IMG/VR virus record: IMGVR_UViG_2690316166_000023 | DNA length: 9,395 bases | Source of the DNA: a virus | Lineage: Duplodnaviria; Heunggongvirae; Uroviricota; Caudoviricetes | Strand: one strand, 5' to 3' | Notes under the pieces: model-generated | What the model saw: only the letters and a program-made list of their open reading frames with translations | What the model was told of the DNA's origin: nothing | Database searches by the model: none | Made by a program: the position numbers and the translations under genes | Shown: positions 3,000 through 8,862 of the stretch, in pieces | Position numbering within the stretch: position 1 is the stretch's first letter | How the letters are laid out: each line of letters begins with the position of its first letter

Positions 3000-3572
3000 A
3001 TGCTGATTGGGTATATCAGGGTGTCAACAAATGACCAGAATACGGCGCTACAAAGAAATGCGCTGGAATGTGCAGGATGTGAGCTGTTTTTCGAAGACAG
3101 AATAAGCGGTAAGACAAGGGAGCGTCCCGGACTTAAACGCGCATTAAAGCGACTCCGGCCAGGGGATACCCTGCTGGTCTGGAAACTGGATCGCCTTGGA
3201 CGCAGTATGCAGCACCTTGTCCTTTTAACAGAAGAACTCCGGCAACGCGGCGTTAACTTCCGCAGCATTACGGACAATATTGATACATCCACTCCCATGG
3301 GACGTTTCTTTTTCCATATAATGGGCGCGCTGGCGGAAATGGAGCGGGAACTCATTATTGAACGTACACGCGCGGGTCTTGCTGCTGCCCGTGCTCAGGG
3401 GCGTCATGGCGGCAGACCTCAGAAACTGACAGAGAAAGAGCGGGAGCAAATCGCCCGTTTGCTGGCTAATGGCGAGTCCCGTAAACAAATCGCACTGATA
3501 TTTGATATTGGCCTTTCCACCCTTTATCGTTATTTTCCTGCCTCACCAGCTCCGTCACCAAAAGTACCGTGA
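3000..3572 (+). CDS. Serine recombinase: DNA invertase of the Gin/Pin/Hin/Cin family
   Basis: 190-aa ORF, ATG 3000 with AAGGAAA ribosome-binding site upstream. N-terminus MLIGYIRVSTNDQNT (catalytic Ser in RVST), ...GDTLLVWKLDRLGRS..., ...PMGRFFFHIMGALAEMERELIIERT..., C-terminal HTH (...IALIFDIGLSTLYRYF), all hallmark invertase blocks. Adjacent crossover site. Confidence 0.95.
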   Translation: MLIGYIRVSTNDQNTALQRNALECAGCELFFEDRISGKTRERPGLKRALKRLRPGDTLLVWKLDRLGRSMQHLVLLTEELRQRGVNFRSITDNIDTSTPMGRFFFHIMGALAEMERELIIERTRAGLAAARAQGRHGGRPQKLTEKEREQIARLLANGESRKQIALIFDIGLSTLYRYFPASPAPSPKVP

Positions 3573-3657: not shown

Positions 3658-5712
3658 ATGTCAGACTCCAAGTGGAAAATGCTCTCCGCCATGCCCGGAG
3701 AGTTTTCAGTCAAGGTTGCCGGTGGCACGGTGGCATTTATTGAAAGCCCTTTCCGCCCTTCGGGTAATAAAGGGGGGATCACCTTCGCAGACTGCGTGAT
3801 CCGCTTCAGCACGAAAGAGCCATTATGGGTAATGCCGGTATCCGGTAATCCCAGTGCAGAAATCACCAGTTCAGGCGTGACTGGCATCATTCCAATCACA
3901 TCTGACGTGGCCGGAACGCTCACGCCCTCCGACTGGAATGCACCGGATAACGCCGGGCCTTCCGGTAGCACGAATGGCAGCAGTTCAGAGCCGGAATATT
4001 ACTTTGTTGTCATTCTCGCGGGTCAGTCAAATGGCATGGCCTACGGCGAGGGGCTGCCGTTACCGGATTCGTTTGACCGCCCGGACCCACGCATTAAGCA
4101 ACTGGCACGCCGCAGTACGGTAACGCCCAACGGTACGTCGTGTACATACAACGACATCATTCCGGCAGACCACTGCCTGCATGATGTTCAGGATATGAGC
4201 GGGATAAACCACCCGAAAGCTGATCTGGCAAAAGGCCAGTACGGGACTGTCGGTCAGGGGTTGCATATTGCCAAAAAACTGCTTCCCTATATCCCACAGA
4301 ATGCCGGGATACTTCTGGTGCCCTGTTGTCGTGGCGGGTCAGCATTCACCACTGGAGCCGACGGCTCATTCAGTGAGGCCAGCGGTGCTTCCGCTGATTC
4401 TTCACGCTGGGGGGCCGGTAAACCTCTGTATCAGGACCTGGTAAGCCGCACCAAAGTCGCGCTGGCGAAAAACCCGAAAAACAAACTTCTGGCTGTGGTC
4501 TGGATGCAGGGAGAGGCAGACCTTGCCTCAGGAAGCCAGCAGCATAATAGTTTATTCACGGCCATGGTTCAGCAGTTCAGAACTGACCTGGCTCCGCTTG
4601 CTGCGCAGTGCGTGAGTGGAAATGCCACCACGGTGCCGTGGATTTGCGGTGATACCACGTATTACTGGAAAAACGCTGGCACCGATAAATATGAGGCAGT
4701 ATACGGTGGCTACAAAGGCAAGGAAGCACAGAAAATTTTCTTTGTACCGTTCCTGACGGATGAGAATGGACAGAGCACGCCAACGAATGCTCCGGCGGAA
4801 GACCCGGATATTGTGGCTGTCGGGTATTACGGTGCAGCATCCCGAACCCAGGGCAGTTTTGTTTCGACACAGCGTGACAGCCATTTCAGCTCATGGGCAC
4901 GCAGGGGCGTCATTTCAGACCGTCTGGCCTCAGCTATTATGCTCCATGCAGGGCGCACGGCTGAACTGATGCGCGGGCAGACCGTGACACCACCGGATGA
5001 GAAGCCGTCACCTGATACACCATCAAAACCGTCCACGCCACCCGCAGACACCACGACGATGAGTACGCTATTTGCTTACCGGGCATCTGAGTCTGAAGGA
5101 CGGTTGACACCACAGGGTTGGGCTGCCGGAGGTGGCAAGGCTCAAATCGTGGATGATGCCGGAGCCAGCGGGGGTAAGGCAATGAAACTGACCAAGGAAA
5201 CAGGAAGAGCCCTCTGGTACCTTGAGCATGATGCTGGTAATGGTGCGGACCTGCTGGGTAAAGGTGGTCTTGTCAGTTGTCGTTTTAAACTCGATGGCGC
5301 GCTTACGGCTAATCAGTACGCACTGGCGCTGTACTGGCCGGTTTCTGCCCTGCCGCAAGGGGTTACTCTGGAAGGAAATGCCGGTCATAACCTGCTGGCA
5401 TCGTTCTACGTACAGAGCGATGCCACAGACCTTAACGTGATGTATCACAAAGGAAACACGGCGCAGAACACGAAGCTGGGGTCATTCGGCGCATTTAATA
5501 ACGAATGGCATACGCTGGGCTTCCGTTTTGCCGGTAACAACAGTATTGAGGTGACGCCGGTCATTGATGGTAAGGACGGGACACCATTCATGCTGTCGCA
5601 GTCTCCGGTCGGCACGTTTACGGCAGACAAGTTGCGCGTGACCGATATCACTAAAAATGCGACTTACCCGGTACTGATTGACAGTATCGTGGTGGAAGTG
5701 AATAACGCGTAA
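3658..5712 (+). CDS. SGNH/SASA-family carbohydrate O-acetylesterase, three-part architecture resembling prophage NanS-p sialate O-acetylesterases
   Basis: 684-aa ORF. SGNH blocks visible: block I VILAGQSNGMAYGEG (catalytic Ser), block II CCRGGSAF, block III WMQGEADL, block V RDSHFS (Asp/His). Preceded by a ~110-aa S/T/G-rich N-terminal region and followed by a Pro/Thr-rich linker (TPPDEKPSPDTPSKPSTPPADTTT, about nt 4980-5060) and a ~220-aa C-terminal domain. Weak ribosome-binding site. The enzyme class is well supported; the sialate substrate is inferred. Confidence 0.8.
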   Translation: MSDSKWKMLSAMPGEFSVKVAGGTVAFIESPFRPSGNKGGITFADCVIRFSTKEPLWVMPVSGNPSAEITSSGVTGIIPITSDVAGTLTPSDWNAPDNAGPSGSTNGSSSEPEYYFVVILAGQSNGMAYGEGLPLPDSFDRPDPRIKQLARRSTVTPNGTSCTYNDIIPADHCLHDVQDMSGINHPKADLAKGQYGTVGQGLHIAKKLLPYIPQNAGILLVPCCRGGSAFTTGADGSFSEASGASADSSRWGAGKPLYQDLVSRTKVALAKNPKNKLLAVVWMQGEADLASGSQQHNSLFTAMVQQFRTDLAPLAAQCVSGNATTVPWICGDTTYYWKNAGTDKYEAVYGGYKGKEAQKIFFVPFLTDENGQSTPTNAPAEDPDIVAVGYYGAASRTQGSFVSTQRDSHFSSWARRGVISDRLASAIMLHAGRTAELMRGQTVTPPDEKPSPDTPSKPSTPPADTTTMSTLFAYRASESEGRLTPQGWAAGGGKAQIVDDAGASGGKAMKLTKETGRALWYLEHDAGNGADLLGKGGLVSCRFKLDGALTANQYALALYWPVSALPQGVTLEGNAGHNLLASFYVQSDATDLNVMYHKGNTAQNTKLGSFGAFNNEWHTLGFRFAGNNSIEVTPVIDGKDGTPFMLSQSPVGTFTADKLRVTDITKNATYPVLIDSIVVEVNNA

Positions 5713-5726
5713 GCAGGATAAAAAAA

Positions 5727-5761
5727 TGCCGCCGGTAAGGGAAAACAAGAAACCGGCGGCA
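5727..5761. terminator. GC-rich stem-loop immediately after the esterase stop; a run of T follows it on the minus strand only
   Basis: Stem TGCCGCCGGT (5727-5736) pairs with ACCGGCGGCA (5752-5761), 15-nt loop. Flanked by AAAAAAA (5720-5726) upstream and AAAAAG downstream, so the canonical hairpin-plus-U-tract geometry exists for leftward transcription; rightward it is a hairpin without a U-tract. Confidence 0.4.
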
Positions 5762-5856
5762 AAAAGATCGTTATATCCAAAGCAAAAAATGCAGTGCACC
5801 TTTTTACCTAACAGATATTACCGGTGTCAACACCATGTCAATAATTGGGAGGGATA

Positions 5857-6039
5857 ATGACATTTTTACAGCTTATTTTATTGTATTTCTGCACGGCAGT
5901 ATGTGCGTTATATCTGGTGAGTGGTGGTTATAAGGCCATCAGAAATTATGTTCGCCGCAAAATTGAGGACGCAGCAGCTGAAAAACTCAGTAAAACAGCG
6001 CAGGTAACTCCGCTCCCAAAAGACCCGACCCAGCCCTGA
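5857..6039 (+). CDS. Small hypothetical membrane protein (60 aa): one N-terminal hydrophobic helix and a basic tail
   Basis: ATG 5857 four nt after GGGAGGG (5847-5853); MTFLQLILLYFCTAVCALYLVSGGYKAIRNYVRRKIEDAAAEKL... The ORF-track start at 5845 is a TTG with no ribosome-binding site. No family recognised. Confidence 0.5.
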   Translation: MTFLQLILLYFCTAVCALYLVSGGYKAIRNYVRRKIEDAAAEKLSKTAQVTPLPKDPTQP

Positions 6040-6074
6040 TTGCAGGGCTTTATTCCCGCATAAGGAGGATATAC

Positions 6075-6329
6075 ATGCCAGAAATTAAAGGCACCGTCAC
6101 TGAAGACCTGGTAAAACAGGCACTGTATTCCGGTGAAGTAAATAAGTTGCTGAAAGCGCAGGTCCGCAAGGATTTTGAGGCACAAATCGACACTTACGTT
6201 GATGAAGTGCTGGCAAAACTTATTGGGCCAGCAGTTGCGGCCAGTGATGCTGATAATGAGCCGAAAACCGACGCGCAGCCAGAGCAACCAGACCCGGCTC
6301 AGCCCGGAACTGACAGTACCATGATGTAA
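6075..6329 (+). CDS. Small hypothetical acidic protein (84 aa): helical N-terminus and an Asp/Glu/Pro/Gln-rich, probably disordered, C-terminus
   Basis: ATG 6075 with near-consensus ribosome-binding site AAGGAGG (6062-6068, 6-nt spacer); 35 nt downstream of the previous ORF on the same strand, so probably one operon. No family recognised. Confidence 0.6.
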   Translation: MPEIKGTVTEDLVKQALYSGEVNKLLKAQVRKDFEAQIDTYVDEVLAKLIGPAVAASDADNEPKTDAQPEQPDPAQPGTDSTMM

Positions 6330-6386
6330 CAATACAAACCGGTGGTGTCCTCTGCCGGTTTGACACTAATGAAAACATCTTTGCCG

Positions 6387-6427
6387 CTATCCAGCCATAT
6401 GTAATCGCTGGATAGTATTTCGTATTC
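6387..6427 (+). terminator. Candidate intrinsic terminator for the two-gene small operon
   Basis: Inverted repeat CTATCCAGC (6387-6395) / GCTGGATAG (6407-6415), 11-nt loop, followed by T-rich TATTTCGTATTC. A second imperfect hairpin sits at about 6335-6360. Confidence 0.35.
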
Positions 6428-6496
6428 AGAAATATAGCTGCTTATGGAGCAGTCAATCCTGCTTCCCCATCCGGGCAGGCAAATGAACCGGTATCA

Positions 6497-6790
6497 TTAG
6501 TCCGATTCACGCTTTTGTAGAATCGTTCCCAGAATGCTATACAGCTCATTAGCCTGTTGCTCCATCATTGAGACGGAGGCTATACGGTGCAAAGTGATTT
6601 CAGGAGGTGGCACACCTCCATCTTCTTGCTGTGGAGGAAAAACATAAGATTTAATAAAAAAGTTGAAGCATATGAACTCTCCCGCACTCGAACTGTATTT
6701 GCAGGCATCTGAATAATCGGAAAAATAATCATTATAGATTTCCGCATTTTCAATCATTTTTCGATTTCTCGTCGTTACATGATTGTCCAT
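6497..6790 (-). CDS. Hypothetical protein (97 aa), AT-rich, transcribed divergently from com-mom
   Basis: Minus-strand ATG at 6790-6788 with AAGAGG 5 nt upstream (complement of about 6796-6801). MDNHVTTRNRKMIENAEIYNDYFSDYSDACKYSS...; no family recognised. Composition appears more AT-rich than the flanking genes. Confidence 0.55.
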   Translation of the reverse strand: MDNHVTTRNRKMIENAEIYNDYFSDYSDACKYSSSAGEFICFNFFIKSYVFPPQQEDGGVPPPEITLHRIASVSMMEQQANELYSILGTILQKRESD

Positions 6791-6978
6791 AGCAGCCTCT
6801 TACGCTGGCAATTAACCAATTGACTTCTATAAATTAGTTGATTTGTTTGCTTTGCGGTATTCAAATGTACAATCATTCAGCACTTATGCGTTACAGCACC
6901 GTTTAAAATTAGTGATCAAACTCATAAATTTTCGCTAATGACATTTCGTGTTATTTGTTGTATCAATTAAATAAATCA

Positions 6979-7003
6979 AATCGATCGTTTTTGTCGATCG
7001 ATT
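6979..7003. promoter_or_regulatory. Palindromic operator-like element with two Dam (GATC) sites upstream of com-mom
   Basis: AATCGATCG-tttttgt-CGATCGATT: 9-bp arms in perfect inverted repeat, GATC at 6984-6987 and 6996-6999, a third GATC at 6914-6917. About 45-65 bp upstream of the com start. Mu mom is known to be controlled through clustered GATC sites whose methylation blocks OxyR binding. Confidence 0.45.
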
Positions 7004-7046
7004 GAGTGATAAAGATATCAACAACAAAGCAGGAGGTTATGCGGCC

Positions 7047-7247
7047 ATGTATCGAAACATACGGTGCCGACATTGTAACAAGCTACTGGCACGAGCCAGC
7101 TTCAGTTATCTGGAAGTTAAATGTCCGCGCTGTAAAACCCTCAATCAAATCACATCTCAGAGCGCCACAGAGCACCCCACATACACAAGGAAATCCTGTC
7201 GTGGGGAACAGAAAGCAAGTTACATCCCGTATCATCAGCACGCCTGA
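7047..7247 (+). CDS. com: Com-like zinc-finger translational activator
   Basis: 66-aa ORF, ATG 7047 ten nt after AGGAGG (7031-7036). [30 protein letters not shown]... has the Cys-X2-Cys...Cys-X2-Cys pattern and aligns block-wise with Mu Com as I recall it (MKSIRCKNCNKLL...IEIRCPRCK...). Its 3' end overlaps the following mom-like frame. The ORF-track start at 7002 is a TTG extension. Confidence 0.8.
7175..7206 (+). promoter_or_regulatory. RNA hairpin that would sequester the putative mom GTG start codon and its ribosome-binding site (candidate Com-responsive translational switch)
   Basis: CCCCAC (7175-7180) is the exact complement of GTGGGG (7201-7206); the 20-nt loop holds AAGGAAA; the GTG at 7201-7203 is in the mom frame and inside the 3' arm. 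It lies inside the 3' end of com, the arrangement known for Mu. Confidence 0.4.
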
Positions 7248-7938
7248 ACTTATTCACTATAACGACAATATCGTCGGTTATGGCTCCCGTGAGTTACGGG
7301 TTGAGACAATAAGTTGCTGGCTGGCCCGGCTGGTCGTCGTCAATAAACATTACAGCCATCGTTTCGTAAATAATTCCTACCTTCATCTGGGCATATTTTC
7401 AGAACGGGAGCTGGTTGGCGTAATGCAATGGGGTTATGCCCTTAATCCAAACAATGGTGCACGCGTCGTAACTGGCACGCAGAACCGCGAATATATGGAG
7501 CTTAACCGGTTATGGCTGCATGACTGTATGCCGAGAAACTCCGAATCAAGGGCAATCAGTTACGCGCTCAAACTAATCAGACAACTTTATCCGCAGGTGC
7601 AGTGGGTTCAGTCGTTTGCAGATGAGCGTTGTGGCTGTCTTGGTGTCGTGTACCAGGCAAGCAATTTTGATTATGTAGGCAGTCATGAAACAACATTCTA
7701 TGAACTTGATGGCGAGTGGTATCACGAGATTTGCAAGAATGCAATCAAACGAGGAGGACAGCGAGGTGAACATCTGCGGGCTAATATCGACAGAGCCAGT
7801 GTTCATAAATTCCGTCAGTTTCGTTACATCCGGTTTCTGGACAAGAGAGCCAGAAAACGCCTTAACACAAAGCTATTCAAAGTCCAGCCTTACCCAAAAC
7901 CACAAACAGTTAAAACTGGTTTGAAAGAGAGTGAATGA
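7201..7938 (+). CDS. mom: Mom-like DNA modification protein (adenine-modifying, acyltransferase-like); start uncertain: GTG 7201 proposed, maximal ORF begins at 7006
   Basis: Long ORF ending at 7938 that overlaps com in another frame, which is the signature com-mom arrangement. GTG 7201 has AAGGA 8 nt upstream and sits in the hairpin, giving 245 aa (Mu Mom is about 230 aa). Assignment rests on context; I cannot recall Mom sequence well enough to align it. Confidence 0.6.

Positions 7939-7995: not shown

Positions 7996-8862
<867 letters not shown>

Follow-up and report, generated by a model that had tools for sequence, protein, structure and literature searches.

What does the AT-rich open reading frame (ORF) that lies divergently beside the com-mom DNA-modification genes of a Mu-like prophage encode, and does it belong to that module? 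We examined this question in a 9,395-nucleotide stretch of viral DNA (IMG/VR virus record IMGVR_UViG_2690316166_000023, hereafter the window), in which a Mu-like prophage of Escherichia coli reaches its right end. The ORF occupies positions 6497-6790 on the minus strand. An earlier note on this DNA had described its product as an acidic protein of no recognisable family, had taken the low GC content as a sign of separate acquisition, and had proposed that the gene may be co-regulated with, or may regulate, com-mom. Our analysis upheld most of this description and led us away from the regulatory proposal. We consider it fairly probable that the ORF is a genuine gene whose product is small, soluble and acidic and binds a partner, that it is carried on a replaceable moron cassette of ~580 bp, and that it has a role in the fitness or the conflicts of the lysogen. 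Our confidence in this composite reading is weighted to the gene, the cassette and the protein family, and the role contributes much less to it. Morons are the independently transcribed accessory cassettes of phages, of which lambda rexAB, lom and bor are examples.

The coordinates given in the earlier note proved exact, and the ribosome-binding site that it mentioned was confirmed. The ORF starts with an ATG codon (Met1), ends in a stop codon at 6497-6499, and encodes a 97-amino-acid protein with an isoelectric point (pI) of 4.74, a net charge of -6 and 12 aromatic residues. A ribosome-binding site, AAGAGG (6796-6801, minus strand), is located 5 nt upstream of the ATG. The length of the ORF was uninformative, since the window contains several spurious ORFs of 97-133 amino acids that overlap real genes. 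A second lineage, consisting of strain CI5 and an IMG/VR contig (the CI5 lineage), is 88.5% identical to the ORF in nucleotides and 79% identical in protein, and it retains the frame, the ATG and a ribosome-binding site, GAGAGG, at the equivalent site. Between the two lineages, the ratio of non-synonymous to synonymous substitution rates (dN/dS) was 0.34 in the frame of the ORF and 0.19-0.25 outside the first 12 codons, compared with 0.58-1.16 in the five other frames of the same alignment (13.8 synonymous and 21.2 non-synonymous differences). Closer alleles gave values of 0.24-0.5, calculated from very few changes. The ORF is thus under purifying selection. Frame, start codon and ribosome-binding site were intact in 13 of the 14 loci compared; in the remaining one (L033), the match is confined to the 3' third of the ORF. 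Because the ORF is conserved between lineages with a low dN/dS in its own frame, and because it has the distant homologues described below, we take it to be a real gene.

The gene is already known to RefSeq as a hypothetical protein (WP_000571916.1), an entry that is unsurprising for a prophage and that gives the product as 86 amino acids beginning at Met12. We rejected this start. The CI5 lineage has a threonine in place of Met12 but keeps both Met1 and the ribosome-binding site, and we therefore prefer the 97-amino-acid start. A promoter-like match at 6811-6782 was also rejected for the 97-amino-acid ORF, as it overlaps the start codon. A literature search under the RefSeq accession and under Mu-like hotspots found nothing on the gene.

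The ORF stands apart from its surroundings in base composition. Its guanine plus cytosine (GC) content is 39.8%, compared with 48.3% for com, 46.3% for mom, 50.2% for the DUF826 gene on its other side and 54.9% for an esterase gene farther left. The limits of this AT-rich segment were defined by comparison with Sp18, a Mu-like prophage of E. coli Sakai. In BLASTN alignments of the window to Sp18, homology was lost between 6358 and 6938; the flanks were 79% (left) and 93% (right) identical and the interior was unrelated. These break-points, with both borders aligned, delimit a replaceable accessory cassette at 6359-6937 that comprises the ORF, 147 bp upstream of it and ~138 bp downstream, with a GC content of 39.4% against 45-55% in the flanking genes. 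The left border is marked by a GC-rich hairpin, AACCGG...CCGGTT (6338-6362), between the DUF826 gene and the ORF. This hairpin is one of several downstream of the ORF; it is shared by the window, CI5 and Sp18, is predicted when the minus-strand RNA is folded to its minimum free energy, and is probably a bidirectional terminator. The right border lies ~109 bp upstream of com. Between this border and the ORF, the region at 6791-6937 (minus strand, 34.7% GC) is shared with the CI5 lineage and not with Sp18, and would be the expected site of a promoter of the ORF's own.

In Sp18, the same slot is filled by an unrelated cassette of 479 bp. It contains ECs_4996 (L012 4422-4886; PHROG 26524), a 154-amino-acid gene on the minus strand that is the counterpart of window positions 6359-6937 and, like the ORF, is divergent from com. 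We rejected the possibility that ECs_4996 is a divergent allele of the ORF, as the two sequences are without similarity. No Pfam or PADLOC model matched ECs_4996, and a CPAC...CPAC motif at its C-terminus suggests a zinc ribbon. Its annotated ATG is ~115 bp from com, compared with 256 bp for the ORF. Because this ATG is only ~8 nt inside the cassette border, the promoter of ECs_4996 must be located in the shared com-mom control region.

We then counted both cassettes across 5,426 complete E. coli genomes. A 681-bp query containing the ORF and its flanks matched 19 genomes, 17 of them over the full length, CI5 at 89% and one over only 58 com-proximal bp, so that the ORF is present in 18. The com-mom pair was found at ≥90% identity in 233 genomes, Sakai Sp18 included, and the Sp18-type cassette in 214, making it ~12 times commoner than the ORF. 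The two cassettes thus account for 214 + 18 genomes, against 233 with com-mom, and for 257 + 27 = 284 loci, against 285 com-mom loci. Since both counts almost sum to the com-mom totals, the slot appears to hold two alternative contents in E. coli. The ORF is present in ~8% and missing from ~92% of the E. coli genomes with the same com-mom module, and phage Mu has neither the ORF nor the Sp18-type cassette. These comparisons indicate that the ORF was acquired separately from com-mom, as the earlier note had suspected from its low GC content: homology to Sp18 breaks on either side of it, and the gap holds an unrelated gene.

The proposal that the ORF protein regulates com-mom, or shares regulation with it through the divergent intergenic region, has its starting point in the layout of the locus. 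com (7047-7247, plus strand; Pfam Zn_ribbon_Com, E 1.3e-12, and RefSeq) encodes the zinc-ribbon translational activator of mom, and mom (7201-7938, plus strand; Pfam Mom, E 1.6e-77, and RefSeq) encodes the DNA adenine modification enzyme; both are neighbours of the cassette and lie outside it. The ORF and com are separated by 256 bp at 34.4% GC, close to the ~250 bp of AT-rich DNA in the earlier note. This intergenic region has two histories, in that 6791-6937 goes with the ORF and 6938-7046 goes with com-mom. The latter segment (plus strand; 93% identity to Sp18) is a control region common to Sp18-type prophages, is also matched in Mu-like inserts of Shiga toxin (Stx) phages, and includes the com ribosome-binding site and a GATC palindrome. 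The palindrome, AATCGATCG-N7-CGATCGATT at 6979-7003, was the only repeat of note in our repeat search. It can be aligned with a GATC cluster that precedes com in Mu and is the established Dam/OxyR control site of the Mu mom promoter. From the palindrome to the com ATG, the distance is 43 nt here and ~70 nt in Mu; this spacing leaves no downstream room for a Mu-style activator site and promoter, and the layout of the com-mom promoter in Sp18-type prophages must therefore be unlike that of Mu. In some genomes (E. coli 90-3040 and SW070917), com is followed by a DNA cytosine methyltransferase gene instead of mom.

Two observations favour a regulatory link. The ORF adjoins com divergently with the alignable GATC palindrome between them, and all members of its close subfamily that we found, at more than 12 loci, adjoin com-mom. 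However, these loci form one lineage with 80-100% identity, and their adjacency to com-mom consequently reflects shared ancestry and not repeated association. When the co-occurrence of the ORF with com-mom in other genomes was checked, as the earlier note had suggested, it pointed the other way: the unrelated cassette stands in place of the ORF in most com-mom genomes, Mu has a com-mom module without it, and the distant homologues of the ORF never adjoin com or mom in the 16 loci read. Conservation among com-mom loci is limited to 6938-7046, and the ORF and its 147 bp upstream fall outside. In Mu, the mom operon is regulated by Com, by the late activator C and by Dam/OxyR of the host (Hattman 1999 review, as cited in PMC3299994). 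The ORF resembles these regulators only in adjoining the segment that can be aligned with the GATC cluster of Mu; its acidic product has no similarity to Com or any DNA-binding family, and no helix-turn-helix (HTH), zinc-ribbon or other nucleic-acid-binding signature was detected in it with Pfam and NCBIfam. The faint PC4/Pur-like likeness of its predicted fold, described below, does not suffice to make it a regulator of this kind. Taken together, it is very unlikely that the ORF is part of com-mom or its controller. The shared GATC palindrome could influence leftward transcription as well.

Scans of Pfam, PHROGs, NCBIfam and PADLOC gave no match to the ORF protein. When 1.84 billion representative proteins were searched exhaustively with HMMER, only the ORF's own clusters were recovered, and a single-sequence word-indexed search only near-identical proteins of E. 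coli and Shigella (79-100% identity). Similarly, tblastn against plasmids yielded chance matches only, and the GTDB species-representative genomes contained no confirmed relative. In tblastn against phage genomes, a single borderline match (E 0.01) was obtained to a 98-amino-acid protein of Escherichia phage vB_EcoS-733R5 (URC09907.1). In a pairwise comparison, this protein aligned with the ORF protein at E 5e-11, with 29% identity over residues 13-91, and hhalign joined the ORF subfamily to the distant subfamily with 95.6% probability (E 1.1e-8). A profile built from the distant family only, searched among 567 decoy ORFs, found the orphan ORFs alone, at 29.7-36.5 bits. The reverse profile, built from the ORF subfamily, found 11 of 11 distant members at 21-33 bits. 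Decoys and shuffles scored at most 6.7 bits, except for one at 15.2 bits that was an IS1-interrupted copy of the ORF itself.

The family comprises 33 clusters at 90% identity, with lengths of 57-125 amino acids and no domain fusions, and its named sources are all Enterobacterales. Relatives were found in at least seven genera, namely Klebsiella, Raoultella, Lelliottia, Enterobacter, Citrobacter, Pantoea and E. coli's own. Identity between the ORF protein and its distant homologues is 23-29%. Eight positions are invariant (I13, D21, F45, G58, S72, A80, L83 and L91) and seven are nearly so (E14, F23, Y32, V50, E56, V73 and L87). The family is acidic throughout, with pI values of 4.4-6.7 and net charges of 0 to -10. 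Like the ORF protein, its members (for example, Klebsiella cluster P0015) are ~100 amino acids long and co-linear over residues 13-91. These results robustly place the ORF protein in a small, unnamed prophage family of the Enterobacterales. The statement in the earlier note that the protein has no recognisable family therefore stands for named families (Pfam, PHROGs, NCBIfam and PADLOC) and not for this unnamed one.

The loci of the relatives share an arrangement that the window lacks. At each of the 16 distant loci that were read, the homologue leads a set of three genes that overlap or lie very close together, with products of ~100, 81 and ~130 (PHROG 5954) amino acids, and com and mom are absent from all 16. 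The three-gene cassette is found at the prophage edge, by host genes and near genes for tail fibres, tail-fibre assembly and invertase, which is also the setting of the ORF. Klebsiella, Enterobacter, E. coli and one metagenomic contig carry it at the ends of prophages (for instance, L005 6001-6931, L016 5001-5934 and L011 6001-6924), and umuDC, an invertase or a retron-type reverse transcriptase is often found 1-3 kb away or closer. The distance to the retron-type reverse transcriptase is ~1 kb or less in phage vB_EcoS-733R5 and some Klebsiella prophages. In a Pantoea prophage, the cassette lies downstream of cI and is co-directional with it. Lysogen-expressed exclusion genes, such as lambda rexAB, occupy this position downstream of cI. 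The proteins of the three-gene cassette matched neither Pfam nor PADLOC. An impression from the sequence that the third gene encodes a RelE/ParE-type toxin was unsupported by Pfam, PADLOC, PHROGs and PDB, and we do not claim it. We regard the cassette as a plausible candidate for an exclusion system, or one of toxin type, that is expressed in the lysogen.

Whereas its relatives are always followed by two co-transcribed partner genes, the ORF stands alone. Searches by tblastn with both partner proteins found none in the window or in related Mu-like loci, and we rejected the possibility of hidden partners on this ground. The 166 bp that separate the end of the ORF from the convergent DUF826 gene consist of hairpins. 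Other company is known for the third gene. In Yersinia phage vB_YenM_30.14 (L037 2310-3309), a homologue with 47% identity is the last of three genes after cI. The first two of these were considered as members of the ORF family and rejected (hhalign probability <1%). Since the upstream genes in vB_YenM_30.14 are unrelated to the ORF family, the PHROG 5954 protein may be the constant component of such cassettes, with variable partners.

This arrangement raises the possibility that the ORF is a stand-alone derivative of the cassette's first component and serves in counter-defence, neutralising the three-gene system or another defence. The Mu-like phage would keep it to bind an effector, complementing the anti-restriction protein Mom next door. 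Consistent with this idea, the ORF occurs by itself although its homologues invariably precede the same two partners, it adjoins an anti-restriction module, and the three-gene cassette is found where exclusion genes expressed in the lysogen typically lie. The ORF protein is also small and acidic, as many phage inhibitor proteins are. However, the three-gene cassette matches no PADLOC model and its defence function is hypothetical; its third gene also occurs with two upstream genes that have no detectable similarity to the ORF family. An interaction of the ORF protein with a cassette component is only putative, and its identity to the first gene product is limited to the 23-29% given above. The frequent inactivation of the ORF, described below, further argues against a strong benefit. 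We therefore regard a counter-defence role, attractive as it is for a solo gene beside Mom, as unlikely. In its fullest form, the ORF protein would be a new kind of small counter-defence factor captured beside Mom that binds an effector, the slot would be a hotspot of anti-defence genes, and the three-gene cassette would be a defence or toxin-type system not described before; this form seems to us slightly more doubtful.

We utilized AlphaFold with 21 sequences to predict the structure of the ORF protein. The mean predicted local distance difference test (pLDDT) score was 73, with averages of 95 for residues 31-40 and 91-93 for residues 71-90. The N-terminal 19 residues scored below 50, although they carry the best-conserved motif of the family, I-E-N-x5-D-x-F. 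The model contains strands at residues 23-34, 37-50 and 64-76 and a helix at 77-96, and a shallower run adds a strand at 13-20. A hydrophobic stripe on the helix (A80, L83, L87 and L91) is conserved, in agreement with a helix packed on the sheet. The conserved but poorly modelled N-terminus could become ordered when a partner is bound. Neither Foldseek against PDB and BFVD (nothing at E ≤ 0.001) nor a profile search of PDB sequences (no match at E ≤ 10) identified a relative.

The model shows a weak similarity in fold, with low scores, to the dimer modules COMM, Pur-alpha and PC4. Each of these is a dimer that combines a sheet with a C-terminal helix, and the likeness hints that the ORF protein is a dimer-forming binding module. 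A more specific version would make it a PC4/Pur-alpha/Whirly-type fold that binds single-stranded DNA or RNA. The predicted topology of three to four antiparallel strands followed by a helix fits such a fold, as does the high share of aromatic residues. In contrast, neither the structure nor the sequence searches returned a significant match, Pfam detected neither PC4 nor PurA, and the ORF protein has no sequence relationship with COMM, Pur-alpha or PC4. The binding surfaces of PC4 and Pur domains are basic, whereas the whole ORF family is acidic, the ORF protein itself carrying a net charge of -6, so that its charge is of the wrong sign for this type of binding. A nucleic-acid-binding role of this type is accordingly most improbable.

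The reading we prefer remains that of a moron. The cassette lies between the probable terminator of the esterase-DUF1378-DUF826 block on its left and the com-mom control region on its right. Because of its orientation opposite to com-mom and the positions of its relatives, we infer that leftward transcription of the ORF does not depend on the late com-mom operon and probably takes place in the lysogen. The product is predicted to be a small cytoplasmic protein with an antiparallel β-sheet packed by a C-terminal amphipathic helix, probably a dimer, that would act by binding a host or phage macromolecule and not as an enzyme. Its role may lie in the fitness of the lysogen or in phage-host or phage-phage conflict, outside the control of com-mom.

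Several features of the cassette resemble those of phage morons such as the lambda examples above, and of the defence and accessory hotspots of P2-like prophages (PMC9519451). It has a deviating base composition, lies between transcription units, is opposed to the flanking late genes, is bounded by a probable terminator hairpin, and sits in a slot with alternative contents. It is also present in some and absent from others among collinear prophages. In E. coli, a large part of the accessory and defence genes is carried in prophage hotspots (PMC9519451). The slot described here differs in that it appears to have two alternative contents, not dozens, in complete E. coli genomes. For the ORF, moreover, a dedicated promoter and expression in the lysogen are presumed.

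A number of observations weigh against this reading. The role of the ORF is read from gene position only, and no PADLOC defence model corresponds to it. The selection estimates are based on few substitutions (35 differences in the main comparison). We found no consensus sigma-70 promoter upstream of the ATG. Some of the prophages that host the ORF are degraded and contain pseudogenes, and the ORF itself is broken in several genomes. In E. coli CP116919.1 (L022 4001-4881), IS1 is inserted after approximately residue 67. Allele P0014 runs into the same foreign reading frame after residue 37, revealing a second IS1 position, while alleles P0012 and P0013 are frameshifted and N-terminally truncated, respectively. 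This amounts to at least four independent disruptions in a small population. Since such interrupted, frameshifted and truncated alleles exist, the ORF is dispensable, and it may be decaying in some hosts.

The same evidence bears on whether the ORF is a silent or decaying remnant, functionless in this prophage. The failure to find a consensus promoter, the broken alleles and the degraded state of some host prophages would all fit a relic, as would the narrow spread of the ORF (18 of 5,426 genomes) and a 22-bp deletion at the prophage end in this copy. On the other hand, dN/dS is well below 1 only in the frame of the ORF, between lineages that have diverged by 11% in nucleotides; 13 of the 14 loci keep frame, start and ribosome-binding site intact; and the family is conserved across at least seven genera. 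On balance, it is unlikely that the ORF is a relic, and we retain the moron reading.

The remaining features of the window describe the prophage end in which the cassette lies. From left to right, ~500-2800 is masked (zero GC, with X in the translations), leaving the tail-fibre and G-segment region unreadable. It is followed by a Gin-type invertase gene (3000-3572; Resolvase and HTH_7), a gene for a 684-amino-acid SASA/DUF6645 esterase that is NanS-p-like (3658-5712; PHROG 143), a DUF1378 gene (5857-6039) and the DUF826 gene (6075-6329, plus strand; Pfam DUF826, E 6.4e-16, and PHROG 311), which is convergent with the ORF and closes the esterase-DUF1378-DUF826 block. With this block (3658-6329) between them, gin and com are 3.47 kb apart in the window, compared with 94 bp in Mu. 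Stx and lambdoid phages typically have such a block in their late regions, and Sp18 carries it too, at 65-74% protein identity. An Rfam scan of 5700-7300 gave two sub-threshold matches and nothing else. One of them is a weak match to Esr41, a small RNA of enterohaemorrhagic E. coli (EHEC), at 5718-5800 (minus strand) between the esterase and DUF1378 genes; its 22 bits, against a gathering score of 102, and E value of 0.2 probably reflect chance.

The prophage ends at ~8044, where the alignment of five copies at different chromosomal sites ceases. The junction sits inside a glycoside hydrolase family 1 gene of the host, which is consequently N-terminally truncated (8050-8862), and a host gene for a HigA-like HTH protein lies beyond it. 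At the right end of this copy (8015-8044), 22 bp between two GGTATCAAA repeats are absent, and these are present in the four other copies (JKHS016, CI5, M3 and Sakai). The deletion costs one GGTATCAAA repeat unit, and transposase binding might be affected. Heavy degradation is evident in the E. coli JKHS016 prophage, which has a 100% identical copy of the region: the genes for protease, tape measure, DNA circularisation and tail are annotated as partial, and the block from gin to mom is intact.

In this study, the new elements are the placement of the ORF in an unnamed family, the three-gene cassette in which its relatives come first, and the two-cassette slot beside com-mom. These findings remove a tempting but wrong connection between the ORF and the com-mom DNA-modification module, and they correct the annotated start, giving a protein of 97 and not 86 amino acids. 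The slot at the right end of Sp18-type Mu-like prophages, with its two cassettes, provides a handy natural comparison for studying cassette function. The ORF now has a small family, the other members of which are the leading genes of a conserved three-gene cassette located at prophage ends and after cI. If the ORF does antagonise this three-gene cassette or another defence, it would represent a new anti-defence family, and its slot a new hotspot.

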